A DNA stretch of 40,443 bases from a virus, in the IMG/VR virus record IMGVR_UViG_3300028841_000327; one strand, 5' to 3'. Each line of letters opens with the position of its first letter. The stretch's first letter is position 1. Both the position numbers and the translations under genes were made by a program. The notes under the pieces were generated by a model. It saw only the letters and a list, made by a program, of their open reading frames with translations. It was not told the DNA's origin and made no database searches. This document shows, in pieces, positions 10,518 through 40,443 of this stretch.

Positions 10518-13500
10518 TCAGCCCGTGAGCCTCACGCTCGAGTCCTTCGTCGCGCCGAGCCTTTTCGGACGCGAGGCGCCACCTTCGAGCGCCTCGTTGT
10601 CCGTGAGCATGGCGTAGAGCTGCTTGCCGATGGAGAGGCCGACGAGGTAGCTGTCCTCGGCGACCCCGGCGGCTTGGAGGGCGGACTCGGGGTCGAGGCC
10701 GTCCGTCGCGACCGAGACGGCGACCTTCCGCATGAGGAGGTCGAGCGCCTGGGTCTGGATGGTGTTCGCGTACTTGGGGACGTAGATGGACGTCGGCTTG
10801 GTCTGCCCGATGCGGTCGACCCGGCCGATGGCCTGGCGGAACGTCAGCGGGTTGCACGCCGGGTTCTGCATCCACACCTCGGTCGAGAAGTGGACCAGGT
10901 TGTTGAGCCCCGTCTGCACCGTCACCGGGTTGGCCACGAGCACCCGCGACTTCTTGGCGATGACCTCCTTGTTGATCCAGTCCTGCCGCTTGGCGGTCGA
11001 GACCTTGTCGGCGTGGAGGATGGGGACCCGCTCGCCGATGCGTTCGGCGATGATCCGCGCGAGCCGGGGCATCAGCTTGGTGTGCCAGCCGAAGACCAGC
11101 ACGTTGCGCCCCGCCTCGAGCTCGGCCTCCACGAGGTCGAGCATCCACTGCTCCTTCGGCAGGATTGTGTTCGCGGGCAGCAGGGGCACCGAGGCCACGA
11201 TCCCACCGTCCTTCACGGTCGGCGGGTACTCGATGGCGAACTGGTCGCCGTGGTCGTTGCCGACGTCGATGGTCGCCCGATCGAGGTAGGAGGGCAGCTC
11301 GGCCAGCTGCCCCCACAGCTTGCCCGCCAAGTCCTTCTTGAAGCGGTCGGAGCGGATCTGGGCGAGCAGCTTGTTGCGCAGCGCCTGGTAGTGCTGGAAC
11401 AGTTCCCCCTCCGCCTTGAGGTCGACGTTGCGCTGCTCGCACTTGGGCAGCTCGATCGAGAGGTCGGACTTGTGGAGGGTGACCGACATGGGGAGCAGGT
11501 GGGTCATGAGGAAGAGCGGCAGCACCCCGGGGGCGTTGCCGAGGATCCGGTGGTTGCGCTCGACGCGGTCGGTCACGGAGCCGAAGGCGATGATCTCCCC
11601 GTCCTGCTTCTCCTCGACGAGGCGCTTGCGGAAGCCGTAGCGCTCGACGAACAGCGACCGGTGCTCCCGGAGGAACTCCCCACGGAAGCGGCGGCTGATG
11701 GCCCAGAAGTTGGAGAACAAGCTCTCGGCGTAGCCGTTCATGATGGTGCCGGTCATCAGGATGGTCGGCAGCCCCATGTTGGTCAGGCGGTGGGCCGAGC
11801 GCTCTTGGGCGCTCCCGTCGGTCGCGTACTCGTGCCCCTCGTCGACGATGAGGAAGTCGAAGAGCTTGCGGTGACGGCGGGAGATGAGCCGGGCGAGCGG
11901 CAGGCGGACGGGGTCGGCGACGCCCTGGTAGAGCGGCTCGTCGCAGACCGGGGAGTGCTTGAAGCGCGCGAGGGTGCAGGCGGCACGGAACGCCCGGAGC
12001 GCCATGGCTGCGGTGCCGGGGGCGTCGTCCTCGATCTTGGTCACCCCGCCCCGGTGCGAGGGGCTGAGGGTGAACGACCAGTCGGGCAGCTTGTTGCCCT
12101 TGTCGACCTCGGCGAGGTGGTCGCGGAGCTTCGCGACGGGGTTGCCGTAGCTGTCGTACCAGCGGCCGGCCATCTGGACCCTCTTCTCGGCGACCAGCTT
12201 CTCGAAGACCACGAGCGCTTGGTCGCGCTCGGCCCCCGGGGGGAGCAGCAGCAGGCACTGGGCGGCGGGGCCCGTGTCCATGCCGTACTCCTTGAGCCCG
12301 AGGTGGTGGATGGTCTCGACGATCAGCCGAGGGTTGGCGAGCGCGAGGAGCGACAGGCAGAGGGCCCGCACCGCCTTCTTCGTCACCTCGGGGATCGTGG
12401 ACTCCACCTCGTTGCGCAGGAGCCGGGTGCACTCGAAGATGATGTGGTGGAAGGGGCTGGACCGGTCGGCGACGATCGGCAGGCCCGACCAGCCCGTGGG
12501 CACGGTCCAAGCGGGCTTGCGCTTCCGCTTCTCGTTGCGCATCAGGTAGGCGTCGCCCCGGGTCTGGGCCATGCGGCCGTCGAGCAGCGCCGCGACGTTG
12601 GGATCCGCCGGGTAGTGGGGCTGCAACCGGATCGCGAGCTCCACGACCGACTCGGCGAGCCGGTCCTTGGGGTGCCGCGTCTGCGCCTTGCAGCGGGCCC
12701 GCGTCTTGGCGAAGTCGCCCCCGTGGAGGGGAGCCCCGCACTTGGGGCACCCGCTGCCCTGGACACCCACGTAGGCGTGCCCGAGCTTGGCGGCCTCACG
12801 GGAGAGCAGGCCGACCACGGGGCGCTCCGGGGCGGCCTTGACGGCCTTGGCGAGGCGCTCGAGGTCGAGCACGTCTCGGAGGACGTGGACGTCGACATCG
12901 GGGGCGATGGCCTCGAACTGTTCCTGCCACGAGGCGAGGAGGTGCGGGGGGCAGAGGATGAGGAGCCGCTTGGCGCCGAGGCTCCGGGCGGCGACGACCG
13001 ACACGGTGCTCTTGCCCGATCCGATCTCGCCGAGCAGGATGGCGGCCCGGTCGGGCTGTGCGAGCAGGCGCACGAGGGCGCGGGCGGCGTGGGCCTGGGC
13101 GGCGAAGAGCTTGCGGGGGGAGGGGTGGAGGGTGACGGCGTTCGCGTGGTAGCGCGGGTCGTAGAGCACCGGGCACTGCTGCTCCATGACGCGCATCAGC
13201 GAGGTCGAGTAGTGGGACAGGAGGTCGGCCGCGGTCATCTCGCAGACGGCGACCTTGCCCGGGGTGATGTCGGTGCCGGCCTTGAGGGTGTGGTAGGCGT
13301 AGGTCGAGAGGTCGAGGACGGTGGTGACCATCTTCGGCTGCTGCACCTGCACCTCGCCGACGACCTCGCCGTCCCTGTTGACCTTCTCCTCGATGGTCCG
13401 GTATTCGCGGTCGAAGACACCCTTGACCAAGAGCGGGGGGAGGTGGGAGCCCGGGTTGGGCTCGACGCGCGCCCCGTTGAAGATCCCGGAGGCCATCCCG

Positions 13501-30112: not shown

Positions 30113-30694
30113 TCACTCCTCGGAAGTCAGGAAGGGGCGGGCCTTGTCGGGATCCTCGACGTAGATCGCCGAGTACCAGTGGGTGCAGGCCTCACTGTAG
30201 AGGCCAACGGCGGTCAGCGCACGCCGGAGAGCCTCCGCGACGTGGAGCGAGAACTTGTCCTCGGGCTCGAAGAAGGAGCGGAGGTTGCCGCCATCGTAGA
30301 CGACGATGAGCAGGGAGGTGCCCCCGTACTGTTCGCCTCGCTCGCGCCAGCGCTTGGGCGAGTAGAAGCTGGTGCAGCCGCCCGTCCAGAACTTGGAGAC
30401 GGGCTCCGGGGCCATGTGGGAGGCCATCTGCTCGATGATGGTGCGCCAGGCGAGCTTGCCGAGCGGATCGAGGTCGGCGGGCATCGCGCTGGTGGTCTCG
30501 GCCATGTCGCGCACGAGCGACAGGTGGCGCTTCAGGACGCCCCACTCGCGATCGTTCTCGTCGAGCATCGCGCGGAGGCTCTTGACGGTGGTGTTCATCT
30601 CCGCCGCGACATCGGCCAGCAGGCCGCTGCTGCGCGGCAGTCCCAAGGCACGCACCTCGGAGACGAACCGGACCAGATCCTTGCGCGCGTTCAT
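30113..30694 (-). CDS. Hypothetical protein (193 aa)
   Basis: GGAGG RBS; TGGC..FYSP..W..RGE.YG..SLLIVVYDGG motif. Confidence 0.6.
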   Translation of the reverse strand: MNARKDLVRFVSEVRALGLPRSSGLLADVAAEMNTTVKSLRAMLDENDREWGVLKRHLSLVRDMAETTSAMPADLDPLGKLAWRTIIEQMASHMAPEPVSKFWTGGCTSFYSPKRWRERGEQYGGTSLLIVVYDGGNLRSFFEPEDKFSLHVAEALRRALTAVGLYSEACTHWYSAIYVEDPDKARPFLTSEE

Positions 30695-31128
30695 GACCGA
30701 CCTCCGAGGCGGAAGGTGGGCTGCGTGTCGAACGCCAGCGCTGCTACGCGCTCGTCGGCGAGGGCCGACGACGTGGAGAACGAGAGCCCGAGCGGCCACG
30801 GATCGTCCACGGCGAACGTGACCTTGACCGCGGTCCGCGGCTGAGCCTCGTCGCCGAGGAGCGCGAAGGCGTCTTGGACGCACTGGGCCTTCAGCGTCTC
30901 GATGCGCTTGGCGCGCCGATCGCTGGCCCACGACCGCTGGCCCACGACGAGGTCGGCCAACGTCTGGCCGTTGCGGTGGATCCGCATGATGATCTCGGCG
31001 ACCTGCTGGGCCTGTTCGGCGGCGAGGAAGTCGGCCCGAGCTTCGGGCCCGGTCTCGGCCTTGGCGCGGATTCGGGCGACGTAGGCGGCGAGCGTCGACA
31101 TGGCGACGCACTGGGCTGTGCTGGGCAT
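30691..31128 (-). CDS. Hypothetical protein (145 aa)
   Basis: Preceded by CCGCAGAAAGG element. Confidence 0.6.
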   Translation of the reverse strand: MPSTAQCVAMSTLAAYVARIRAKAETGPEARADFLAAEQAQQVAEIIMRIHRNGQTLADLVVGQRSWASDRRAKRIETLKAQCVQDAFALLGDEAQPRTAVKVTFAVDDPWPLGLSFSTSSALADERVAALAFDTQPTFRLGGRS

Positions 31129-31160
31129 GATGTGGCCTTTCTGCGGGGTACGGCCCGCGT
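31129..31160 (-). promoter_or_regulatory. Minimal start-associated element (hairpin C + SD)
   Basis: GCGGG-CCGTAC-CCCGC-AGAAAGG-CCACATC-ATG. Confidence 0.6.
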
Positions 31161-31178
31161 CCGATGTGGCAGGAAGTG

Positions 31179-31412
31179 TCAGGAGTTGAGAAACGCGCGA
31201 ACCGCCGTGAGGGTGGGGCTGATCCCACAGGCTTTGGCGGCGCGCTTCATGGCGGGGCCGGTGCTGGCGTTGCCCTTGGCGTACGCAGGGATCATCTTGG
31301 CGACGACCTGCGGCACGCCGTCCACCGTGTAGGCGTAGTCGTCGGGCTTGGTGGTGACGAAGTGGGTCAGCGCCTCGGTGTAGGCGGCGGCGAAGCGTTC
31401 GGTGTTGGTCAT
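31179..31412 (-). CDS. Hypothetical protein (77 aa)
   Basis: GAGGA RBS. Confidence 0.6.
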   Translation of the reverse strand: MTNTERFAAAYTEALTHFVTTKPDDYAYTVDGVPQVVAKMIPAYAKGNASTGPAMKRAAKACGISPTLTAVRAFLNS

Positions 31413-31427
31413 GTGGACGGGATCCTC

Positions 31428-31955
31428 TCAGGGTTTGACGAACTCGCGTTCCGCCACCGTCAGCGTGGCCCACCCTGGGCGCAGGTGACGGTCGTCGCCG
31501 AGCAGGACCGTCTGGCCACACCCGGAGACCACGTACTGCTCGCCGCGCCTCGCCTGGACTTTGGCGGCGTGCTTGCGGATGCTCTCGACGAGGTCGGCCC
31601 GGATGTCGGGCTGCTCCTCCAGCTTGAGCGTGGCGAAGCACAGGAACGCGAGGCGCTTGTAGTCGCCGTGCACCTCGACGGTGCGATCGGCGTACACGAG
31701 GCCGGTGCTGAACACGCCGATGAACAGCGGGTCGACCTCCGGCTCGGGCTCGGCCGGGCGGGACTGCCAGCTGATGGTCTGCCCTTCCGCGAGCCGCTTG
31801 GTCTCGGCGCGCGTGAGCTTGCGGCACGGTGTGCCCCCGGACTTGCGCTTCGCGCTGCACTTCGTGCAGTACACGAACCCCTTGTTGTCGATGTGCGTCA
31901 CGGCACCCTCGCAGGTCTTCTCCATGTCGCACTGGAGCTTGTCGGTGGTGATCAC
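31428..31955 (-). CDS. Hypothetical protein with N-terminal Cys cluster (175 aa, GTG start)
   Basis: CDM..TC...VTHIDNKGFVYC..C; GGAGG RBS, GTGA coupling. Confidence 0.55.
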   Translation of the reverse strand: MITTDKLQCDMEKTCEGAVTHIDNKGFVYCTKCSAKRKSGGTPCRKLTRAETKRLAEGQTISWQSRPAEPEPEVDPLFIGVFSTGLVYADRTVEVHGDYKRLAFLCFATLKLEEQPDIRADLVESIRKHAAKVQARRGEQYVVSGCGQTVLLGDDRHLRPGWATLTVAEREFVKP

Positions 31956-32494
31956 GGGATGTCCTCCACGTCTTCTAGTTCGAGCTGCGCGGCCGTCTCG
32001 GCCCGCGCGACCTCTTCGTTGTCGAAGCGGACCGCGGCCTCGCGCGCTTCGGCGCAGCCGGACGAGCAGAAGCGCTCGTCCTCCAAGTCCTGCATCATGT
32101 AGCTCTCGACGGGGAGCAGCTCGCCGCACTGGTCACACTTCGGCATGCCGTCGCGGATCTTCTGGGCCCGCTCGAGCGCGTTCTCTTCGGTGACGTCCGG
32201 GAAGGGACAGGTGGCCCCGGCCGTGAATCCGAAGCCGAGTTCGATCGGCTCGTCCGGGTCACCCCCGGCCTTGCGGAGCGAGACCCACGCCTTGCGCACC
32301 GCGATGGCGGCCTCGACGGCCTCCACGGGATCGCGGAAGGTGCGGCCCTCCCCAAGCGCCTTGAGAGCGCGGTGTGGCGTGAGTTCCCCGGGGTTGGAGT
32401 AGTTGGGGCCGCCCTGGGCGACCTCGACGGAGAGCGTGCCTTCCGGCCAGGCGCGCTGGCGGGAGACGTAGAACTGCATGATGTCCTTGCTCAT
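31952..32494 (-). CDS. Hypothetical protein with C-terminal TRASH/MYM-like Zn finger (180 aa)
   Basis: CDQCG...RFCSSGC; GAGG RBS. Confidence 0.6.
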   Translation of the reverse strand: MSKDIMQFYVSRQRAWPEGTLSVEVAQGGPNYSNPGELTPHRALKALGEGRTFRDPVEAVEAAIAVRKAWVSLRKAGGDPDEPIELGFGFTAGATCPFPDVTEENALERAQKIRDGMPKCDQCGELLPVESYMMQDLEDERFCSSGCAEAREAAVRFDNEEVARAETAAQLELEDVEDIP

Positions 32495-32502
32495 GGTGGA
32501 CC

Positions 32503-32712
32503 TCACGTGTGGATGTGGCCGTCGTTCTCGACGCCGACGTACATCCCGTGCCGGTAGAAGAACCAGTTGCAGTTCAGGGTGTCGTACTTGATCTCCGCGA
32601 GGATCGCGTCTGCGTCGGCGGGGTACGCCTTGCGGATCGAGGCCTGGACGGCCTCGTCGGGGATCAGCGGACTGCCGGCCTTGATGGCCGCGACGATCTG
32701 GGCGTGTTGCAT
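32503..32712 (-). CDS. Hypothetical protein (69 aa)
   Basis: Preceded by CCGCAGAAAGG element; C-terminal GMYVGVENDGHIHT. Confidence 0.65.
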   Translation of the reverse strand: MQHAQIVAAIKAGSPLIPDEAVQASIRKAYPADADAILAEIKYDTLNCNWFFYRHGMYVGVENDGHIHT

Positions 32713-32844
32713 GGGAACCGTTGCCTTTCTGCGGGTGTTGACCGCGCCGAAGCACCCGACGCCGCCCCGGGGGGGGGAGGGAACGACGTCGAGTGCTTCG
32801 GTGCGGTGGCGAGCGGGAAGAACACCATGAGCAGACCGCTCGCC
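32713..32844 (-). promoter_or_regulatory. Full A-B-C intergenic structural element with C-rich apical loop
   Basis: A GGCGAGCGG..CCGCTCGCC; B ACCGCACCGAAGCACTCGACGTCG..CGGCGTCGGGTGCTTCGGCGCGGT; C GCGG..CCGC then AGAAAGG. Confidence 0.7.
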
Positions 32845-32871
32845 CCGAGACCGTAAGCACCTCCTTTCTGC

Positions 32872-33054
32872 TTAGACGACAGAGCACGAAGAGCCGATGA
32901 GACGACACGTGAAGCACGCCGAGTCGTGCCACGTGTAGATGGCGAAGCGGCAGTGTGGCCGCCCGCACACGGGAACCTCCGGGTAGCACACGTCTCCGTG
33001 TGCCATCGCCGTTGCGGTGGCCTGCTCGGGGCGCGTGAGCTTGGCGACGAACAT
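32872..33054 (-). CDS. Small Cys-rich protein (60 aa)
   Basis: TGATG coupling and GC-rich third positions, but the region is also strongly self-complementary. Confidence 0.4.
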   Translation of the reverse strand: MFVAKLTRPEQATATAMAHGDVCYPEVPVCGRPHCRFAIYTWHDSACFTCRLIGSSCSVV

Positions 33055-33368
33055 CACTCGGCCGCCTGGTCGACGGGCTGGTTCGCCTTGACCACGGACC
33101 CGAGGAGGTCGAAGAGCCCGGCCAGCGCATGGCCGGCCTTGACCGCGGCCATGAGTTCGGACCAGTGCTCGTCCGCGTCCTCCGTGCGGGCGAGGAACGC
33201 CAGCTGGTGGACGATGAGCCGCACCGCGGGGTCCTTGGCGGGCTGGACGCCCTCGTCGCGGGCGGCGTTGGCCGCGCTCACGAGCGCATGGGCGATGCCG
33301 CTGATGTTGCAGGCGCCGCCTTGGATGCCCTCGGCGGCGTAGAAACGACTGCGGGTGAACTGGATCAT
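33054..33368 (-). CDS. Hypothetical protein (104 aa)
   Basis: Preceded by element; Q.ACN.SGI...DPAVRLIVHQLAFL motif. Confidence 0.65.
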   Translation of the reverse strand: MIQFTRSRFYAAEGIQGGACNISGIAHALVSAANAARDEGVQPAKDPAVRLIVHQLAFLARTEDADEHWSELMAAVKAGHALAGLFDLLGSVVKANQPVDQAAE

Positions 33369-33484
33369 GATCGTGGCCTTTCTGCGGGATGGGCCCGCGA
33401 CGAAGCACGCGACCCCGCTACCCCGGGGGGGTGTGGGGAACAGACAGTCGCGTGCTTCGTCGCGAGGGCGACCCGAGGTCGCCC
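33369..33484 (-). promoter_or_regulatory. Full A-B-C intergenic structural element with C-rich apical loop
   Basis: A GGGCGACC-TCG-GGTCGCCC; B 20-bp CTCGCGACGAAGCACGCGAC/GTCGCGTGCTTCGTCGCGGG; C GCGGG-CCCAT-CCCGC then AGAAAGG. Confidence 0.75.
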
Positions 33485-33491
33485 CCACCGG

Positions 33492-33986
33492 TCAGGCGTC
33501 AGTTGCAGCTTGGAGCTGCGCCCCGAGCACTTGGACCGCATCGGCGGCCGACTTCGCAGCCTTCGCGGCCGCCTCCTTCGCGAGCCGCACCTTGACCACC
33601 TTGATGATCATCTGGAGTTCCTGCACCTGCTCCGGGCGGAGACCCGCCGCGAAGCGCTCGAGGAACAGTTCGGCCTTGTCGAAGTCGTATCCCGAGAGGC
33701 CGTGCCAGTGGACGTGGCCCTTCTCGTCCTTGAACATCGCCCCGAAGGGGTTGTACGTCGAGGCGTGGGGCTTGTTCCAGAACTCGCCCTCGCGCTTCGG
33801 ATTCGTGGTCTGCGAGACGAACCGAGTCCCCTTGCGCGGGTGGACGTCCAGCCAGTAGCGGATCTTGCACCGAAGCGAGCGGCCGTATGGGTAGTCCTCC
33901 ACCAGCAAGGCGGTCTCGGGCGAGTAGTGCCCGGAGAGGACTTCGACGACGTTCGCGAACGGATCGGGCTTGTCTCCGATGATCAT
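33492..33986 (-). CDS. Hypothetical protein (164 aa)
   Basis: GHYSPETA.LV.DYPYG..LRC.IRYW...GTRFV.QTTNPK....WNKP.ASTY motif; preceded by element. Confidence 0.7.
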   Translation of the reverse strand: MIIGDKPDPFANVVEVLSGHYSPETALLVEDYPYGRSLRCKIRYWLDVHPRKGTRFVSQTTNPKREGEFWNKPHASTYNPFGAMFKDEKGHVHWHGLSGYDFDKAELFLERFAAGLRPEQVQELQMIIKVVKVRLAKEAAAKAAKSAADAVQVLGAQLQAATDA

Positions 33987-34016
33987 GACGTGGGCCTTTC
34001 TGCGGCGGAGCCGCGC
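33987..34016 (-). promoter_or_regulatory. Minimal start-associated element (hairpin C + SD)
   Basis: GCGG-CTCCG-CCGC-AGAAAGG-CCCACGTC-ATG. Confidence 0.6.
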
Positions 34017-34724
34017 TCAGAACTGGGGCCGAGCAGGCAGCGGCGCCTGCTCGATCATGGCGAGCACCTCGGCGGCGCTCGCGGGGGGAACGGGGAGCGC
34101 GCCGACCTTCGGGCGCCCGTAGGCACACGACACGGCGGTGTCGATGTCGGCGAGGCAGCTCGGGTGTCCCGAGCACCGCGCGAGGCCGACGTAGTGTCGA
34201 TCGCGGTACAGGCCCTCGGCCTTCTGCGTCGCGGCGCGGGCCGCGTGAACGTTCGTGGCCGCGTCCCACTGCCTCCGCGAGAGGGGCGAGGGGTACTTGC
34301 GGTCCTCTGGCGGGGTCTCGATCCAGGCGAGGATCTGGTCGCGGAGCTTCATGCGAAACTCCGACTTGAGCTTGGCGCCGAGGAGGGCGCAGGCGGTGGC
34401 GCGCTCGACGCTGCCGCCGATCCGCTTGAGGCCGCGCTGCCACGCCTCGGGCCATCGGGGGTCGGCCCAGGCCCACACGTACTTCCAGTCCACCACGGAG
34501 CCGACCCACTCCTCGGGCTTGAGCCACGAGGGGAGGACGACGTCGTGACGCTCGTACTTGTGGCACTCGACGGGCATGTCGAAGTCGAAGCCCGCGCAGT
34601 AGGTCGCCATGACCTTGAGCAGCGGCTCGTCCTCCGCGCGCCAAGGGCGCAGGGGACTCGCGGGCGTGGGGGCGTTCTCCCCGTCCTTCACGAAGAGGAA
34701 CGAGGTCGCCGTGAACAGGGCCAC
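34017..34724 (-). CDS. Hypothetical protein (235 aa, GTG start)
   Basis: Co-oriented; KSEFR..LRDQI..W..TPPE.RKY.SPLS.RQW motif. Confidence 0.6.
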   Translation of the reverse strand: MALFTATSFLFVKDGENAPTPASPLRPWRAEDEPLLKVMATYCAGFDFDMPVECHKYERHDVVLPSWLKPEEWVGSVVDWKYVWAWADPRWPEAWQRGLKRIGGSVERATACALLGAKLKSEFRMKLRDQILAWIETPPEDRKYPSPLSRRQWDAATNVHAARAATQKAEGLYRDRHYVGLARCSGHPSCLADIDTAVSCAYGRPKVGALPVPPASAAEVLAMIEQAPLPARPQF

Positions 34725-34734
34725 GGCGACGCCC

Positions 34735-35013
34735 TCAGTGCCCCGCCGAGCGGTCGACCCGCTCCGCGAAGTAGCGGCCGCGGTTCGCCCGGTCGGGCCA
34801 GAACGCGACGATGGGGACGTTGTCGCCCTCGCCCTCGACGATGCCGAAGGCCGCGTAGACGGTCTCGCCGCCCGCGAGCTTGACCGTCCGGTGCATGAAG
34901 GCCGGGGGGAGCATGTCGAGGAACTCGTCGGCGAGCCCCTCCGTGACCTCCACCCGCTCGCCCTTGCGGATCGCTTCGTAGAACGCCTTACGGTCGCCAT
35001 CGCCGGTGAACAT
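34735..35013 (-). CDS. Hypothetical protein, possibly DUF1419-like (92 aa); internal start in the 34735-35286 frame
   Basis: Own CCGCAGAAAGG SD; EVTE..ADEFLDMLPP.FM...FG..EG.....AFW...GRYF. Confidence 0.5.
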   Translation of the reverse strand: MFTGDGDRKAFYEAIRKGERVEVTEGLADEFLDMLPPAFMHRTVKLAGGETVYAAFGIVEGEGDNVPIVAFWPDRANRGRYFAERVDRSAGH

Positions 35014-35286
35014 GGTGGGCCTTTCTGCGGGACTTCCCCCGCGTGGTTCTGCGTCGGAAGGGGAGCACCCCCATGCCTTGAAGGCCAGACCGTAGTCTGT
35101 CCCTTCGGCCTTGCGGATCGTGACGAGCGTGTTCCAGCACGCGCCGTCCACGTCGACGCCATCGTCGGTGTCGACGTAGACGTGCTCGGTGCCAGCGCGG
35201 GCGATGAGCCCGGCCCGCTGGCATGCATCGGTGATCTGGCCGACGAGGGTCGGACCGGTCCACGCCCGGATGCGGAAGCGGGCCAT
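34735..35286 (-). CDS. Read-through fusion ORF (183 aa) spanning a degenerate intergenic element
   Basis: TGATG-coupled start at 35286; no stop before internal SD/ATG at 35013. Confidence 0.45.
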   Translation of the reverse strand: MARFRIRAWTGPTLVGQITDACQRAGLIARAGTEHVYVDTDDGVDVDGACWNTLVTIRKAEGTDYGLAFKAWGCSPSDAEPRGGSPAERPTMFTGDGDRKAFYEAIRKGERVEVTEGLADEFLDMLPPAFMHRTVKLAGGETVYAAFGIVEGEGDNVPIVAFWPDRANRGRYFAERVDRSAGH

Positions 35287-35576
35287 CAGCTGGCCCTCTG
35301 CGCGTCCTCGACCTCGGCCTCGCGGCGGGTCGTGGCGACCGTGACGACGGCCACCGGGGACACCTTGCGGATGTCGACCCAGAGCGAGCGGGCGTCACCC
35401 AGCGTGTGGCTGTTCCCCGTCGAGAAGTAGACGGCCTGGGGTTTGAACCAGAGCCGCGTGACCCCGTCCGGGGACGTGGCGTGCGGCACCTTGAGGGGGC
35501 CAGAGATGGCCCACCCGGTCGCACGGAGGTGCGCGATCAGTTCCTCGCGCGCCTTGGCAAAAGTCTTCTGCGACAT
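35286..35576 (-). CDS. Hypothetical protein (96 aa)
   Basis: Preceded by element; LKVPHATSPDG..RLWFKPQAVY motif. Confidence 0.65.
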   Translation of the reverse strand: MSQKTFAKAREELIAHLRATGWAISGPLKVPHATSPDGVTRLWFKPQAVYFSTGNSHTLGDARSLWVDIRKVSPVAVVTVATTRREAEVEDAQRAS

Positions 35577-35660
35577 GACGTGTCCTTTCTGCGGCGAAGC
35601 CGCGCCGAAAGGCTCCACGAGGTGGAACCCTTCGGTGCGGGGGCGAGCGCTGGGCTCGCC
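35577..35660 (-). promoter_or_regulatory. Full A-B-C intergenic structural element
   Basis: A GGCGAGC..GCTCGCC; B CCGCACCGAAGGGTTCCAC-CTC-GTGGAGCCTTTCGGCGCGG; C GCGGC-TTC-GCCGC then AGAAAGG. Confidence 0.75.
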
Positions 35661-35668
35661 ACACCGTG

Positions 35669-36037
35669 TCAGGCCGCCCGAACCGTGGCCGCAAGCGCGA
35701 CCAGGAGCGCGGCCAGCTCGCGTTCGTACACGTTCAGCGTGCGCTGGATGCTCGGCATGATGCGTTCCGAGACGATGAGGCTGCGACAGAGGTTCCCGAT
35801 CGTGTTCGCGATCAGGTACTGCGTCGACATGTACGGGCTGCCGAGGCGCGCCATGTCGGCGGCCCCGGTCAGGTAGGACAGCCTTCGGCAGAGTTCGGCG
35901 TCGGGATCGTTCTCTTCCTGGCCGATCGGCCGATGCACGGCAGACCACTCGACGGGGTCGGAGAACCCGAGGTCGTACCAGTCCGTTCGGAGGCGATCGA
36001 GGAACACTCGGATCACTTCGCGTTCGTCATGCGTCAT
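35669..36037 (-). CDS. Hypothetical protein (122 aa)
   Basis: ATGA coupling, GGAAGG RBS. Confidence 0.55.
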   Translation of the reverse strand: MTHDEREVIRVFLDRLRTDWYDLGFSDPVEWSAVHRPIGQEENDPDAELCRRLSYLTGAADMARLGSPYMSTQYLIANTIGNLCRSLIVSERIMPSIQRTLNVYERELAALLVALAATVRAA

Positions 36038-36435
36038 CGGAAGGCCCTTCCTGCCGCGCTCCGCGCGCGGCGCTTGCCCTTGGGCGCTTCGCGCACCGGG
36101 GGCGATGGGGTCGGCTGCGTCGCGTCGTACGCGAGGGTGGCCGACATGTAGAGGTAGCCGTAGGAGCGCCGCGGGCTGTACCGCAGCCGATAGAGGTCGC
36201 CCTCGATCGAGTAGGTGTTGCTGTCCGACGGATCGGGCAGGTTCGCGCGGAGCAGTGGCAGGGCCTTGCTGTTCAGCCAGGCCGCCATGGACTCGCGTTC
36301 CGCTTGGGAGGCTTCGCCCTCGACGCCGCTCCGGTCCAACAGGATGTCGAGGGAGCCGTCCCGAAGGATGGCGCGCGCCGACCAGTGGAACCGAGGGTCG
36401 CCCTCGGGTTCGAGCCCCCAACCCTTGGGAGGCAT
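36034..36435 (-). CDS. Hypothetical protein (133 aa)
   Basis: TGATG coupling; SP..SYGYLY motif. Confidence 0.6.
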   Translation of the reverse strand: MPPKGWGLEPEGDPRFHWSARAILRDGSLDILLDRSGVEGEASQAERESMAAWLNSKALPLLRANLPDPSDSNTYSIEGDLYRLRYSPRRSYGYLYMSATLAYDATQPTPSPPVREAPKGKRRARSAAGRAFR

Positions 36436-36638
36436 CAGTAGCCCCCGCGCTCGTCACGATCGGCGCAGCGGTCGCACTGGTAGCCGCGCGCCTTGTCGGC
36501 GGGCGTCAGGCGGTTCGGCGCCTTGCACGTGGGGCACGGGAGGTTGCGAGGGTTGGACCTCGACGCCGCCCGGAGAGCCGAGTGTCCCCTGGGGTCCGCG
36601 AATTCGAGATCCCCGCCGTCATCGTCATCGTAGTACAT
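36435..36638 (-). CDS. Small Zn-ribbon protein (67 aa)
   Basis: PRNLPCPTC..PNRLTPAD..RGYQCD.CAD; preceded by element. Confidence 0.7.
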   Translation of the reverse strand: MYYDDDDGGDLEFADPRGHSALRAASRSNPRNLPCPTCKAPNRLTPADKARGYQCDRCADRDERGGY

Positions 36639-36737
36639 GGCTTCCTTTCAGCGAGCCGAATGCCCGCGCCTCGACCCCGGAACCGGATGGTGTCCAGGGT
36701 CGAGGTGCGAGGGCGAACCGTTGGCCACCGGTTCGCC
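36639..36737 (-). promoter_or_regulatory. Full A-B-C intergenic structural element
   Basis: A GGCGAACCG..CGGTTCGCC; B CTCGCACCTCGACCCTGGA..TCCGGGGTCGAGGCGCGGG; C GCGGGC-ATTCG-GCTCGC then TGAAAGG. Confidence 0.75.
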
Positions 36738-36751
36738 TCGGAACGAAAACG

Positions 36752-36850
36752 TCAGTGCCCAGCCTTCCCCCCGTTCAAGGGCGCGCGGACTGGCTTCCCT
36801 GGGCACTGGCATGCGGCCGTCAGCCGCGTGTGTCTTCTGCGGTCGAGCAT
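36752..36850 (-). CDS. Possible 32-aa peptide MLDRRRHTRLTAACQCPGKPVRAPLNGGKAGH
   Basis: GGAGGA RBS, but overlaps a perfect 10-bp stem; may be non-coding. Confidence 0.3.
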   Translation of the reverse strand: MLDRRRHTRLTAACQCPGKPVRAPLNGGKAGH

Positions 36851-36873
36851 GAGTCCTCCGCTTGGGTGGTCGG

Positions 36874-37032
36874 TCACTCGATCGAATTGAACGCTTCGCG
36901 CAACTCGCGCCGCGCCTCGTGCCGCTCGCGCCGCCGCTGCGCCGCGCCGTGCCAAGCCAGGCACGGATCCTGATGACGCAGCCGAACCGAACGATCGCGC
37001 CGACGGTGGCGCGGCTTCTCACTGTGGAACAT
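36874..37032 (-). CDS. Small arginine-rich protein (52 aa), candidate RNA-binding factor
   Basis: MFHSEKPRHRRRDRSVRLRHQDPCLAWHGAAQRRRERHEARRELREAFNSIE; preceded by CCGCTGAAAGG SD; below ORF-track cutoff. Confidence 0.55.
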   Translation of the reverse strand: MFHSEKPRHRRRDRSVRLRHQDPCLAWHGAAQRRRERHEARRELREAFNSIE

Positions 37033-37332
37033 GGGTGCCTTTCAGCGGAGCAGTGGAGCCCCGCGTGAGACACCCCGAGACGTTGTCGGCGTCCGGCCGG
37101 ACCCACCGACGGAGCGACTGGAGAACCGTTCGACGGCGAAGGCTTCCTCAGTTTCCACACGTTGGGCTGCTCGTCCCATCGCCCCATGCCGCGGCACGGT
37201 TTGATTGTTGGGAGTCGCCAAGGCCACGATGGGCATGAGGAAGAGGAAACCCCTTCCGTGTCATGAACGGCGCTCGCTTGCGCCCACTACGTCTCAGGAT
37301 GTCTCACGCGAGGGGGAGCGCGAACGCTCCCC
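37033..37332 (-). promoter_or_regulatory. A-B-C element whose 23-bp stem B encloses a 207-nt insert
   Basis: Arms 37290-37312 and 37060-37082 pair completely with three G-U pairs on the minus strand. Confidence 0.75.
37083..37289 (-). ncRNA. Putative structured ncRNA of unknown family (207 nt)
   Basis: Nested helices GAGCG/CGCTC, CCGTTC/GAACGG, GAAGG/CCTTC, CTTCCTCA/TGAGGAAG, CCCATCG/CGATGGG; 3' hairpin; no SD-led ORF. Confidence 0.55.
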
Positions 37333-37339
37333 GCGCGTG

Positions 37340-37528
37340 TCAGCCAGTCTTGGCCGAGGTGTAGATGTTGAGCCCGAGCTTGACGTTCTCGCGGCCGGGG
37401 ATCGAAACCGAACCCTCGGTGCTCGCGACGATCTTGGACTTGCCGGAACTCGACATGCCGAAGTTGCGCGTGAGATCCACACGCACCACCAACACGTCAC
37501 CATCGATCTTCATGTCGACATTCTTCAT
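37340..37528 (-). CDS. Small beta-rich conserved hypothetical protein (62 aa)
   Basis: MKNVDMKIDGDVLVVRVDLTRNFGMSSSGKSKIVASTEG...KLGLNIY; GAGGAG RBS; resembles a widespread uncharacterised family (recollection only). Confidence 0.75.
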   Translation of the reverse strand: MKNVDMKIDGDVLVVRVDLTRNFGMSSSGKSKIVASTEGSVSIPGRENVKLGLNIYTSAKTG

Positions 37529-37623
37529 GGCGTTCTCCTCTCGCGGGGGAAAGGCCCGCGTGAGACACACCGAACCCGTGCGGCTCAGGATGTCTCACGC
37601 GAGGGGGAGCGCGAACGCTCCCC
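37529..37623 (-). promoter_or_regulatory. Full A-B-C intergenic structural element
   Basis: A GGGGAGCG-TTCG-CGCTCCCC; B CTCGCGTGAGACA..TGTCTCACGCGGG; C GCGGG..CCCGC then GAGAGGAG. Confidence 0.75.
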
Positions 37624-37628
37624 ACCCG

Positions 37629-37877
37629 CTACGCCTTGTCGTGCCCCGGGCGGCTCAGGGCGCGATGACGCCGCGCCTCCCGAAGATGGGCCTGTGCGAC
37701 CGCGAGGGAAGCGTCGACGAGGCGACTGTACGCCCTCCCGACGAGACCGTTCGCCCCGGCCGAGCGGCGCAGGTGACGCCGCGCATCCGCCAGAAACCGG
37801 GCCGCCGTGCGCTCCACGCGCGCCGCGTACCCCACACGGTCGACCTTCCGAAGCGACTTCCGCTGTGCTCGTGCCAT
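37629..37877 (-). CDS. Basic Arg/Ala-rich helical protein (82 aa)
   Basis: Preceded by CGCTGAAAGG element and followed immediately by hairpin A. Confidence 0.6.
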   Translation of the reverse strand: MARAQRKSLRKVDRVGYAARVERTAARFLADARRHLRRSAGANGLVGRAYSRLVDASLAVAQAHLREARRHRALSRPGHDKA

Positions 37878-37978
37878 GGTTGCCTTTCAGCGTTGCCCAC
37901 AACGGGCCCCGCGCCACGACCCCGGAACCGACAGGCGGATCCAGGGTCGAGGTGCGAGGGGGAGCGCGAACGCTCCCC
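37878..37978 (-). promoter_or_regulatory. Full A-B-C intergenic structural element
   Basis: A with TTCG loop; B CTCGCACCTCGACCCTGGA..TCCGGGGTCGTGGCGCGGG; C GCCC..GGGC then TGAAAGG. Confidence 0.75.
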
Positions 37979-37982
37979 GCTC

Positions 37983-38324
37983 CTACGTGGACTGCTCGAT
38001 TTCCATCAGGAAGGGCAGTGCCCACCCCGGAGTCGATTGCGCGGTGTAGAACGCATCGGCCTCGACGCGCTTGCCCTCGCGGAGACACCCGGAGACTTCG
38101 TTCGGGGTGCTCTCGTCATACATGGCGACGTCGAGTTCCCCGTTCGACATGATCCGCACCGAGATACACCCCCGCATGTTGGGTCGGCCGATGACGGCCA
38201 GCGTGGTGCTCTCAGCGCGGAGACGCCACCCTCGCCCCATGGGGTCGGTTTCGCGCGTGTGCCCCCCGCCCCATGGGAACGTGCCTTCCCACGACTGCTT
38301 GGCGGAGATCGAAAACTCCATCAT
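37983..38324 (-). CDS. Hypothetical protein (113 aa)
   Basis: Bracketed exactly by two elements. Confidence 0.65.
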   Translation of the reverse strand: MMEFSISAKQSWEGTFPWGGGHTRETDPMGRGWRLRAESTTLAVIGRPNMRGCISVRIMSNGELDVAMYDESTPNEVSGCLREGKRVEADAFYTAQSTPGWALPFLMEIEQST

Positions 38325-38416
38325 GGCTGCCTTTCAGCGGGCCCACCACGGGCCCCGCGCCACGACCCAGGAACGGATCCAGGGTCGAGGTGCGAGGGGG
38401 AGCGCGAACGCTCCCC
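38325..38416 (-). promoter_or_regulatory. Full A-B-C intergenic structural element
   Basis: A with TTCG loop; B CTCGCACCTCGACCCTGGA-TCCGT-TCCTGGGTCGTGGCGCGGG; C GCGGGGCCC..GGGCCCGC then TGAAAGG. Confidence 0.75.
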
Positions 38417-38422
38417 ACCACA

Positions 38423-39265
38423 CTACTTGCGACGCAGCCAGCGCTGGCCCGCGCCGAACGAATCGTCGCGCGCCTTGCCTTCCAAGTTGGCAGGCCGGTT
38501 CGGGGCGAGAACCACCCCGCCGCGACGTTGCACCATGTCCGCACCCGGACGCAGCTTGCCGAACTGCTCGCCATGTTCGTTCGACCACGCGAGGTTCGCG
38601 GCATTCGAGTCCAGCGCCGCTTGCGCAACGTTGTGACGCACCGACTGATACATGATCTCGACATCGCGGAGCGATCCGCCCCGTTCCATCCGAAGCCGCG
38701 CCCGAAGCGCGGTGTCGGGGTCGTGTTCCGCCATGAATTTGAACATGGCGTCGAGACTCACCCCGACCGCTTCGCGCTCCGGCTTCGGCTCCTCGCCGAT
38801 CGGGAGCATGGTCGTGTGATAGACCGGCCGCGTGAGAACGCTTCCGACGGATGCACACGTCTGACCGACGAGAGCCCCGGGCCTGTAGGCCGACGCGCTA
38901 CCGCGCCGACAGACGCCCAGTTGCTGAACGGACACCGCGTAGGCGAGCCGTTCGAGCGGTGTCGCGCCGTGGCCGAGGAGACGGAGCCCGCAACGCGAGC
39001 CGCCCCGCCGACACCCGACGCGGACCGTGGTCCGCACGTAGACTTGCCGCATGACGCCGCCCGGTTTCACCTCGCGATCGGTCGCTTCCGCGACGACCGG
39101 GGTCACCGTGGCCACGACCGCGACCGGGACAGGCGGAGGTTTGACCTCGACCTTCGGCGCCTTGGGCGCCTTGCGCTTGACCGGTTCGACCGGTTCGGGA
39201 GCAGCCGCCACGAGGCTAGGCCTCAGAGCCGCGGACCCCTGCACAATCCTGCGCATTGCACGCAT
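38423..39265 (-). CDS. Hypothetical protein (280 aa), first gene of the minus-strand unit
   Basis: CCGCGAAAGGAAACC-ATG start at 39265; Pro/Val/Lys-rich N-terminus. Confidence 0.55.
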   Translation of the reverse strand: MRAMRRIVQGSAALRPSLVAAAPEPVEPVKRKAPKAPKVEVKPPPVPVAVVATVTPVVAEATDREVKPGGVMRQVYVRTTVRVGCRRGGSRCGLRLLGHGATPLERLAYAVSVQQLGVCRRGSASAYRPGALVGQTCASVGSVLTRPVYHTTMLPIGEEPKPEREAVGVSLDAMFKFMAEHDPDTALRARLRMERGGSLRDVEIMYQSVRHNVAQAALDSNAANLAWSNEHGEQFGKLRPGADMVQRRGGVVLAPNRPANLEGKARDDSFGAGQRWLRRK

Positions 39266-40085
39266 GGTTTCCTTTCGCGGGCCCACCTTGGGCCTCGCAC
39301 CAAAACCCCGGTACTGCGCTTGCAGTCCAGGGCTTTGGCACGAGGGCGAATCTTGCGACTCGCCCCCGCACCAATCGAGGCTCACAACCTCGACAGGCCG
39401 GGGCACGTTACCGTGCAGACATGGGCCTTTGCTTTCGCGTTACCGCCCCCGTAGGGTTCACATACCAGCGACCCGCGACGCTTGCGCATCTAGCAGGCTC
39501 GCCGCTGTGATTTTGCGGCACCCGGGGCTCACAACCCCTTTCCAATCGTCAGGGCACGTCACCGTGCAACATAGACGCTTTCGCGACCGCCTCTTACGAG
39601 CGATTGCCTTGCAGCAACCCTTTGCGGTACCCGGCCTGTTCGACCGTTCCCGGACTCCCGCTAGGCCAGCCGGGGCTCGCAACCCTGACTTCCTAGACGG
39701 ACCGTGCCTGTAGCGCGCCGACCTTTGGCGTTTCCATGCTGCTAACACAAGCGCTCGTTTCCGAGGGGCGCGGGTGAAGCATGGCCCGGAACGATTCCGG
39801 GTGAAGCGTTGCACACCATATGCAACCGGTCGACACGACGTGACGTATGTAGCCTGTACGTAGGCCAGTCGCTATCCGCGTTGTTCGCGTTGTGAGAGGC
39901 CGCGGGGTAATCCCGTGGCATCGCGCCGCTTGCTTCGCTTGCGCACCGTAGAACCGGGCCCCTGTCACGGGGGGCCGAGTCTTCTAGGATGGAACCAAAC
40001 CACCCTAGATGTGCCTGTATTGCCGCCGCATTACCCCTATGGCGGGGGGGAGACGCTTAGTCGGAAACCGACAGTCAACGTCTAC
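39266..40085 (-). ncRNA. Putative ~820-nt structured leader / large ncRNA ending in an A-B-C element
   Basis: Dense hairpins with GNRA (GCAA, GTAA, GTGA, GAAA) and UNCG (TACG) loops and G-U pairs on the minus strand; three repeated units; lower GC; six CTAG in 39490-40092, rare in coding DNA here. Confidence 0.6.
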
Positions 40086-40113
40086 CAACTAGCGTTCCAT
40101 CGGACCAAACCCT

Positions 40114-40208
40114 CAAAGCAGAGCTTCTAACTCTGCAATGCAAAGCCAAAGCAGAGCTTGACAAAGCTCTGCCATGACCAAAGCAGAGTTTCTTGCGAAA
40201 GCAGAGCT
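40114..40208. repeat. Array of (C)AAAGCAGAG boxes, operator- or iteron-like, in the divergent region
   Basis: Direct copies at 40114, 40147, 40179, 40198; inverted CTCTGC at 40131 and 40167; palindrome GCAGAGCTT-GACA-AAGCTCTGC (40151-40172). Confidence 0.75.
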
Positions 40209-40360
40209 ACTGGTCGGGCGGTTAGGTAGTATGCGCGTTCAGGCACACGCTAGCGGAACGCGAGGCGCGCGGCAAGTGTCGAATCGTTCGCGCTCGATCG
40301 TGCGAGTGTCGCGCGGCGCATCGCTCGCACGTGGCGCGCGTGGTCGGCTACCATGTTCGC

Positions 40361-40443
40361 ATGCGTACGTGGCAGAAAGTAGCAATCGGTCTCGGAACCC
40401 TCGCCATGATCGGCGTGGCCGTGACGTGGACGAGCGAGGCGCG
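40361..40443 (+). CDS. Start of a divergent gene with signal-peptide-like N-terminus (truncated by window edge)
   Basis: MRTWQKVAIGLGTLAMIGVAVTWTSEA..., open to window end. Confidence 0.45.
   Translation, partial: MRTWQKVAIGLGTLAMIGVAVTWTSEA

Follow-up and report, generated by a model that had tools for sequence, protein, structure and literature searches.

A repeated three-hairpin RNA element ahead of small early genes of a high-GC phage, possibly a signal for transcript processing

The stretch of DNA analysed here (IMG/VR virus record IMGVR_UViG_3300028841_000327; 40,443 nucleotides, hereafter the window) has a G+C content of 68% and carries nearly all of its genes on the minus strand. Nine gene starts within it are preceded by a full copy, and three more by a reduced copy, of an element made up of three hairpins (A, B, and C) and a ribosome-binding site. 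The conclusion that these copies form a real family of structured RNA elements is strongly supported. As for their role, the best reading, which we hold tentatively, is that they are RNase III-type processing signals, whose products would be capped by hairpins.

The full unit runs, in this order, from the upstream stop codon through hairpin A, stem B, hairpin C, and the ribosome site to the start codon of the next gene. The original prediction, made from the letters of the window, had placed a shared minus-strand architecture at about 12 gene starts, with nine full and three reduced copies; reading and folding of the sequence confirmed the element at all 12 of them, the reduced copies consisting of hairpin C and the ribosome site only, and no further copy was found elsewhere in the window. 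Hairpin A begins 4–8 nt past the upstream stop in most copies, and its loops include UUCG and GCAA tetraloops. The TTCG form predicted for four copies was indeed recovered, since GGGGAGCG-TTCG-CGCTCCCC followed by CTCGC occurs four times in the window, always on the minus strand, with zero occurrences expected. Moreover, the motif CGC[A/T]GAAAGG, lying 5–11 nt ahead of starts, is present 11 times versus 0.13 expected (10 of the 11 on the minus strand, between positions 31136 and 38339). GAAAGG as such is found 19 times on the minus strand and three times on the plus strand; 18 of the 19 stand just ahead of a start codon with an open reading frame (ORF), the exception at 39542 having no ORF. 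Hairpin C had been described as GCGG...CCGC directly abutting (A/T)GAAAGG; this holds for most copies, but not for IG1–IG3, whose hairpin C is of the GGGCCC type, nor for the 37529 site, where the ribosome site is GAGAGGAG. The three-hairpin elements are confined to the first 8 kb of small early genes and are absent downstream; some of the genes farther down the operon use GAAAGG without hairpins.

Anchored at CUCGC/GCGGG, stem B extends without gaps over 19 bp or more in each of the nine full copies (range 19–24 bp, instead of the 13–24 bp originally given), with 94% canonical pairs in register versus 28–51% out of register. Its mismatches are all of the 1x1 type (A-C at position 5, U-U at positions 8 and 15). 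The arms fall into five families (IG1; IG2, IG3, and IG6; IG4 and IG5; IG7; IG10 and IG11), and each arm is more complementary to its own partner (0.92) than to the partners of the other copies (0.61; permutation p = 5e-5). A covariance model built from five copies recovered all three held-out full copies (E = 1e-10 to 1e-7), together with the split copy IG5 in its two halves; in the remainder of the window, the minus strand gave only two weak matches (E > 3), and the plus-strand matches were the same palindromes at far lower scores. The alignment produced with the model was used for the pairing statistics, MAFFT alone having misaligned three copies. In this alignment 94.4% of the cells pair, versus 75.7% in shuffles and 39–49% in slid controls, and 16 of 27 pairs show changes on both sides (12 of 19 in B and four of eight in A); the covariation score is 0.59 versus 0.20 in shuffles. 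None of 500 shuffles reached the observed pairing, the number of both-side changes, or the covariation score. According to these data, B is a selected helix, in which structure is kept rather than sequence, and the claim that it is conserved across different sequence families stood up to the covariance modelling that had been proposed with it.

The pair types of B also reveal the strand on which it folds. G-U pairs number 20 and A-C mismatches five, all five at one conserved position; outside this position and one conserved U-G, the counts are 14 and 0. This asymmetry identifies the transcript-sense strand as the folding strand, as the original prediction had maintained from the G-U pairs. Furthermore, RNA folding energy favours the minus strand in six of the nine full copies, by about 55 kcal/mol summed. 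The element fits a gene-sense RNA (or a single DNA strand), not a duplex DNA site.

Table 1. Copies of the three-hairpin element in the window. Positions are those of the whole window; arms of B are given 5' to 3' on the minus strand; "held out" marks copies kept out of the covariance model.
Copy	Type	Position	Strand	Gene start	Hairpin A	Stem B arms	Hairpin C and ribosome site	Model score
IG1	full	39263-39372	(-)	39265 (280-aa gene)	loop GCAA	39344-39326 + 39312-39294	GGCCC type, then GAAAGG	95.2 bits
IG2	full	38322-38418	(-)	38324	GGGGAGCG-UUCG-CGCUCCCC, 38416-38397	38396-38378 + 38372-38354	GGGCCC..GGGCCC, then CGCUGAAAGG	105.9 bits
IG3	full	37875-37980	(-)	37877	as IG2	family as IG2; 37958-37940 + 37926-37908		105.4 bits
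IG4	full	37526-37626	(-)	37528	as IG2	family 2; 37603-37585 + 37573-37555	loop CCUUUCC, then GAGAGGAG	85.7 bits
IG5	full	37030-37335	(-)	37032	as IG2	family 2; 37312-37294 + 37078-37060, enclosing a 215-nt insert		two partial matches, 28.5 + 16.5 bits
IG6	full	36636-36740	(-)	36638	GGCGAACCG..CGGUUCGCC	family 1; 36711-36693 + 36681-36663		86.4 bits
IG7	full	35574-35663	(-)	35576	GGCGAGC..GCUCGCC	35641-35623 + 35617-35599	GCGGC-UUC-GCCGC, then AGAAAGG	35.8 bits, E 1.3e-7 (held out)
IG8	reduced	35011-35042	(-)	35013 (ATG)			GCGGGG-GAAG-UCCCGC, then AGAAAGG	16 bits
IG9	reduced	33984-34014	(-)	33986 (ATG)			GCGGC..GCCGC, then AGAAAGG	
IG10	full	33366-33488	(-)	33368		33466-33448 + 33412-33394, extended to ~24 bp	GCGGG..CCCGC, then AGAAAGG	47 bits, E 1e-10 (held out)
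IG11	full	32710-32848	(-)	32712	18-nt loop	32807-32789 + 32759-32741	GCGG..CCGC, then AGAAAGG	43.2 bits, E 1.1e-9 (held out)
IG12	reduced	31126-31158	(-)	31128 (ATG)			GCGGG..CCCGC, then AGAAAGG	

The insert of IG5 (37079-37293, minus strand) folds as a long nested rod, and an in-frame, ATG-started ORF of 64–73 residues is also open there.

The three hairpins overlap at the base of B. Its 3' side, GCGGG (y), is at the same time the 5' arm of C and is complementary both to CUCGC (x), the 5' base of B, and to CCCGC (z); x, in turn, is also able to pair with the G-rich 5' flank of A. B and C had been proposed to be mutually exclusive: this applies to the basal 4–5 bp of B (x:y versus y:z; 2–3 nt in IG1–IG3), but not to its upper 14 bp, which persist in both states in constrained folds. 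In the same folds the state with B complete and the state with C differ by no more than 1.7 kcal/mol in six of the nine copies, and in IG4 the former state pairs the ribosome site with the CCUUUC loop. Before any cut, too, the fold leaves the ribosome site mostly unpaired. When a cut in the middle of B was simulated, in most copies the upstream product folded x onto the flank of A and the downstream one formed C; in the light of these folds, the overlap would serve to separate and cap two products rather than act as an on/off gate. Covariation is unable to test x:y or y:z, because x, y, and z are all conserved in sequence and never vary.

The region 30500-40443 was searched for signals that could start or end transcripts between the genes. 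No sigma-70-like promoter site was found there, and a terminator scan returned three terminator-like sites versus a shuffle mean of 5.4, none of them being A, B, or C; no U tract follows A, B, or C in the elements of the array. JGI metagenome contigs contain 42 copies of the 20-nt hairpin A, 25 of them followed by a T tract, which marks them as ordinary terminators; in the window, CTCGC comes next in four of four copies and a T tract in none. The same 20-mer retrieved no relatives of the array from the JGI metagenomes, only generic terminators, and hairpin A joined to the start of B was not found in IMG/VR. As a separate observation, a possible 32-residue ORF with a GGAGG site lies between a 52-residue gene and IG6 (36752-36850 and 36742-36809, minus strand); past it, a 10-bp stem, CAGUGCCCAG..CUGGGCACUG, followed by ACGUUUUCGUU, is the sole U-tract terminator-like structure in the array.

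Rfam scans were empty both for the whole window at gathering score and for 31000-39500 at E ≤ 1, which excludes the known self-cleaving ribozymes (twister, hammerhead, pistol, hatchet, and HDV-like), and no described element matching the three-hairpin unit was found in the literature. Nor are the elements dispersed as REP/MITE repeats are; in genomes, the pattern of hairpin C and the ribosome site has only single, chance-level matches. The statement that the element stands outside any described family is thus borne out.

The array follows a long, structured, non-coding leader with operator-like repeats (about 39400-40200), and about 20 small proteins are encoded in the first 8 kb past it. PHROGs matches in the window include a helicase, a methyltransferase, a ParB-like protein, an RNase H, and a replication initiator. 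Among the 20 array proteins examined, Pfam returned no trusted match and no RNase or RNA-binding domain. Fourteen contigs carry an identical gene of the same phage, including contigs from JGI 3300028898 and from Logan runs SRR108237xx; the six of these that were examined are 100% identical to the window, with no structural variants and no microdiversity. No match to the array turned up when 50,697 phage records were searched by Megablast. For the 164-residue array protein (33492-33986, minus strand), 894 homologues were counted among environmental phage contigs (E ≤ 1e-10), all of them unnamed and without a Pfam domain; this early phage protein is widespread and uncharacterised. The 82-residue gene behind IG3 (37629-37877, minus strand), which has the full element and a ribosome site, is uncalled in the JGI gene table of an identical contig (L145). 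Lastly, AGAAAGGAGGTG at 32858-32869 (minus strand) is a perfect 12-nt complement of CACCUCCUUUCU and stands directly past a stop codon. The only frame behind it is a GTG one that overlaps other genes, and the site may let ribosomes dock in the manner of a STAB-SD.

Three related fragments were retrieved from other samples, L012 (90% nucleotide identity), L151 (85% protein identity), and L013 (55% protein identity); no relative long enough to hold a full orthologous copy was found. At orthologous sites all three carry hairpin C with AGAAAGG and different loops. This is the case of IG9, whose orthologues in the three fragments keep the stem, and of IG8, ahead of a 92-residue gene, where L013 has GCGGC-GCA-GCCGC, the fifth pair having changed from G-C to C-G in a compensatory manner. 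The orthologue of the IG10 hairpin A in L151 is a UUCG-loop hairpin, and past one conserved C-plus-ribosome-site element L013 harbors a different downstream gene. IG8 lies in frame within an ORF of 183 residues (34735-35286, minus strand), and no stop codon separates the gene starting at 35286 from the hairpin C, ribosome site, and ATG of IG8; both a 183-residue fusion and a separate 92-residue product are possible. That IG8 heads a real gene follows from L013, whose orthologue starts directly past its own hairpin C and ribosome site. The fragments L001–L011 and L152–L155, found through two array proteins (40–64% identity), are without the architecture. One of them, L154 (Logan SRR24472961), a 51%-GC phage fragment with the 164-residue protein family, has a repeat of its own, TCCCATCAA, in most spacers ahead of small genes.

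Beyond these relatives, the pattern GCGGG..CCCGCAGAAAGGC is present at 11 loci in IMG/VR, only one of which (L014) is an array; in 185,579 genomes it gave only single, chance-level matches per contig. The array belongs to G001 (IMGVR_UViG_3300018050_001860), a 74.9-kb viral contig of a huge, unrelated phage with 46% G+C (CheckV completeness 19%) that has no protein in common with the window; two further contigs, L254 and L265, are related to G001. It has 15 same-strand copies before small genes (34899-45720; loci L014, L157, and L158), each unit running from a U-tract terminator through a conserved hairpin of 8–9 bp (CCCGCUCC..GGAGCGGGG), a linker, and hairpin C (GCGGC..GCCGC or GCGGGR..UCCCGC) to (A/UA)GAAAGG and ATG. 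A second viral contig, L198 (IMGVR_UViG_3300013121_000036; 110.8 kb, 63% G+C), has two multi-hairpin spacers on its reverse strand (about 11360-11490 and 13010-13140) that end in GCGGC-CUAGU-GCCGC and then GAAAGG, and the covariance model from the window scores one of them at E = 0.005. A protein of L198 also resembles a window ORF (35% identity over 105 residues). Searching all loci for long stems before C by minimum free energy was too noisy in GC-rich coding DNA, L198 being the sole useful case.

Hairpin C with its ribosome site is far more widespread than the full unit. In IMG/VR, GCGGC-N3-5-GCCGC-AGAAAGG occurs in at least 119 contigs of 38–71% G+C, in at least 100 distinct contexts, versus 25 independent sites for a non-hairpin control pattern of the same composition; the hairpin-forming motif is at least five times commoner than this control in viral contigs. 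Among the matches listed, 75% of the contexts have a start codon and an ORF next, versus 45% for the control. In those contigs, 11 of 103 other AGAAAGG-type starts have a GC hairpin exactly at the junction, versus 2–6 at shifted positions. A strict sigma-70 promoter lies just upstream of C in only two of 93 viral contexts, so that the idea of C as the 5' end of primary transcripts does not generalise. No description of this module was found in the literature. Hairpin C with AGAAAGG is a recurrent phage start-site design, which points to a general rule for phage ribosome-binding sites or for mRNA stability. AGAAAGG complements ..CCUUUCU-3', the 16S rRNA end in many bacteria, whose full 12-nt complement also stands in the window as AGAAAGGAGGTG, and a hairpin ending at AGAAAGG could conceivably stack on the helix formed by rRNA and mRNA.

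On the processing reading, the elements would be RNA signals acting in cis within the polycistronic RNA transcribed early from a large high-GC phage. The 3' end of the upstream message would be capped by hairpin A, and stem B, a two-turn duplex, would most likely be the target of an RNase III-type endonuclease specific for double strands. After the cut, the basal 5-bp helix x:y (CUCGC:GCGGG), which joins the products, would give way to two intramolecular helices: x would refold onto the 5' flank of A, and y would pair with z (CCCGC) to form hairpin C. Each product would then end in a hairpin, with C directly against the AGAAAGG ribosome site. We infer the single transcript, the cleavage, the stabilisation, and any effect on translation. 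The length of B (19–24 bp in nine of nine copies) is the two-helical-turn length typical of RNase III substrates, two turns being their primary reactivity feature (PMC1540722). In addition, with no sigma-70-like promoters or intrinsic terminators inside the array, separate messages would need processing.

Several points weigh against this reading. Comparing intact and cut RNA, the simulated cleavage gave no consistent rise in the exposure of the ribosome site. B is without the asymmetric internal loop of T7 sites, and GC-rich perfect helices can be poor substrates of E. coli RNase III. The analogous array of G001 has a middle hairpin of only 8–9 bp and true U-tract terminators, so that the C module can work without a long duplex. 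As regards the covariation, the copies are paralogues in five families and the independent events are therefore few, and the alignment behind the statistics was itself fitted to the model.

The main rival, which we consider rather unlikely, is that the spacers insulate and stabilise passively, without cleavage, by blocking 3' exonucleases and Rho loading and by giving each ribosome site the same context (C, then a single-stranded AGAAAGG) whatever the upstream gene. The mostly unpaired ribosome site of the uncut fold is consistent with it, as is the occurrence of C and the ribosome site alone, both at three sites of the window and, without B, in many unrelated phages, where the enrichment over the control and the excess of following ORFs reported above also speak for it. 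It leaves unexplained, however, why B has about two helical turns in every copy and why its base overlaps both A and C. Less probable still is a role at the DNA level, in which the repeats would be homology patches for the gain, loss, and shuffling of small genes. There is a precedent in the PeSL of T4-type phages (PMC2839356), identical stretches of 40–43 bp (A and the 5' arm of B) bracket the 113-residue and the 62-residue genes, one assembly breaks within such a repeat, and L013 has its different gene past a conserved element. Exchange by homology, however, needs identity and not pairing, whereas B has diverged into five complementary families; the G-U asymmetry points to a single strand; and the six identical contigs examined hold no structural variant. 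Cassette exchange is more probably a by-product than the function under selection.

A regulatory switch or protein operator, in which x:y versus y:z (and w:x) would make initiation at the next gene depend on translation of the gene before it or on a bound phage or host protein, is about as improbable as cassette shuffling. In six of nine copies the states have almost the same energy, hairpin A mostly starts within reach of the terminating ribosome (4–8 nt past the stop), and IG4 does pair its ribosome site when B is complete; against these stand a ribosome-site exposure without consistent change between the states, the invariance of x, y, and z, which leaves neither helix with covariation support, the absence of the overlap from the G001 array, and the absence of any Pfam match to an RNA-binding domain among the 20 array proteins. 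Two further explanations appear very unlikely. One is a series of terminators or pause sites that an antitermination system, assembled on the long leader, would allow transcription to pass. In its favour, hairpin A has the same stem as ordinary intrinsic terminators found elsewhere, and a long structured leader precedes the array; intrinsic termination, however, needs a U tract even in high-GC bacteria, and the elements have none after any of their hairpins. The other is that the elements are selfish REP- or MITE-like repeats of no use to the phage, which would likewise be palindromic, multicopy, and intergenic, but the elements keep a strict orientation and position, between stop and ribosome site and on one strand only, their length is conserved and their changes are compensatory, they are confined to one 8-kb block, and the motif has only single, chance-level matches in 185,579 genomes.

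The processing reading may also be combined with the wider occurrence of hairpin C, as a widespread translation-start module to which this phage would have added a processing-coupled refolding unit; we regard this joint reading as unlikely, if attractive. Two ideas are contained in it: that C might stack end-to-end on the helix with the last 16S bases while also capping the 5' end, and that a cut in B might trigger the exchange of the shared 5-bp helix, freeing two hairpin-capped messages. Such a refolding unit, if real, would parallel in nature the synthetic RNA insulators that make the genes of an operon independent.

Three known systems had been named as analogies of the element. In the early region of T7 and T3, RNase III signals (R0.3, R0.5, R1, R1.1, and R1.3; the early sites of Bacillus phages SP82 and SPO1 are akin) are hairpins between the cistrons of one early transcript, whose products end in stabilising hairpins; T7 sites share sequence, and an internal bubble gives single-strand cuts. 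The elements of the window resemble them in lying between the cistrons of a co-directional run of early genes, here with a putative single transcript, and in the duplex of about two helical turns (19–24 bp in nine of nine copies). They differ in having five unrelated stem sequences and no internal loop, 1x1 mismatches only, and in that the near-perfect GC-rich duplex is flanked by A on the 3' end of one predicted product and by C on the 5' end of the other, both overlapping its base. In function, the elements would be most like the RNase III sites between T7 early genes, cleavage here being predicted; the analogy is sound for the intercistronic position and the two-turn duplex, and fails for the internal loop and the shared sequence.

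PeSL of T4-type phages are repeats of about 100 nt that fill the space between a stop codon and the ribosome site following it; they lie on either side of small orphan early genes and contain GGGG..CCCC stems, a strong sigma-70 promoter, and a working terminator (PMC2839356). Placement from stop to ribosome site, association with small early genes, and identical copies bracketing single genes are shared with the element of the window, whereas neither a sigma-70 promoter site nor a U-tract terminator was detected in its copies; it is therefore not a PeSL. As to exchange at the repeats, the evidence consists of the two bracketed genes and the differing gene of L013, with no variant in six identical contigs. 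The G001 array is nearer to PeSL, having U-tract terminators and a conserved middle block, though a promoter was not identified there.

The SAS and ESAS of cluster K mycobacteriophages consist of a 13-bp sequence, GGGATAGGAGCCC, 3–7 bp before starts, and, in the case of ESAS, of a repeat whose departures do not support RNA pairing and for which a DNA-binding role has been proposed (PMC3203893). They too are asymmetric ribosome-site motifs ahead of non-structural gene starts, in one orientation, with an upstream inverted repeat in a subset. The motif there is GGGATAGGAGCCC, whereas here it is CGC[A/U]GAAAGG, and 12 of 19 stem pairs covary here; the likeness thus extends to the placement before starts, and not to the 13-bp consensus or to the lack of covariation.

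Among stabilising structures, REP/BIME hairpins shield upstream segments from 3' exonucleases, and a 5' hairpin of the ompA-leader type near the ribosome site guards against decay that depends on the 5' end; these are single hairpins, not a fixed three-part overlapping unit at every gene. REP and MITE sequences are dispersed, whereas the element keeps to one strand and one 8-kb block. Integron attC sites are likewise imperfect palindromes that bound small promoterless cassettes, fold as single strands, and have conserved mismatches. The element differs from them in having no R''/R' core sites (RYYYAAC / GTTRRRY), the base of B being CUCGC/GCGGG in all copies, and in ending in the ribosome site of the next gene; no integrase was seen in the window.

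In general terms, early phage operons hold many small takeover genes, whose independent expression from one promoter is required. T7 answers this with RNase III sites and T4-type phages with a promoter and a terminator for each gene; the phage described here would represent a third, more elaborate design with clear covariation, a fixed three-hairpin unit with overlapping helices. If cleavage and refolding are true, the unit would amount to a natural insulator, compact in size, for expressing polycistronic messages in high-GC hosts, and would merit an Rfam family. The three-part overlapping design and the shared C module are new, while the general kind to which it belongs (T7-type early sites, PeSL, and SAS/ESAS) is already known.

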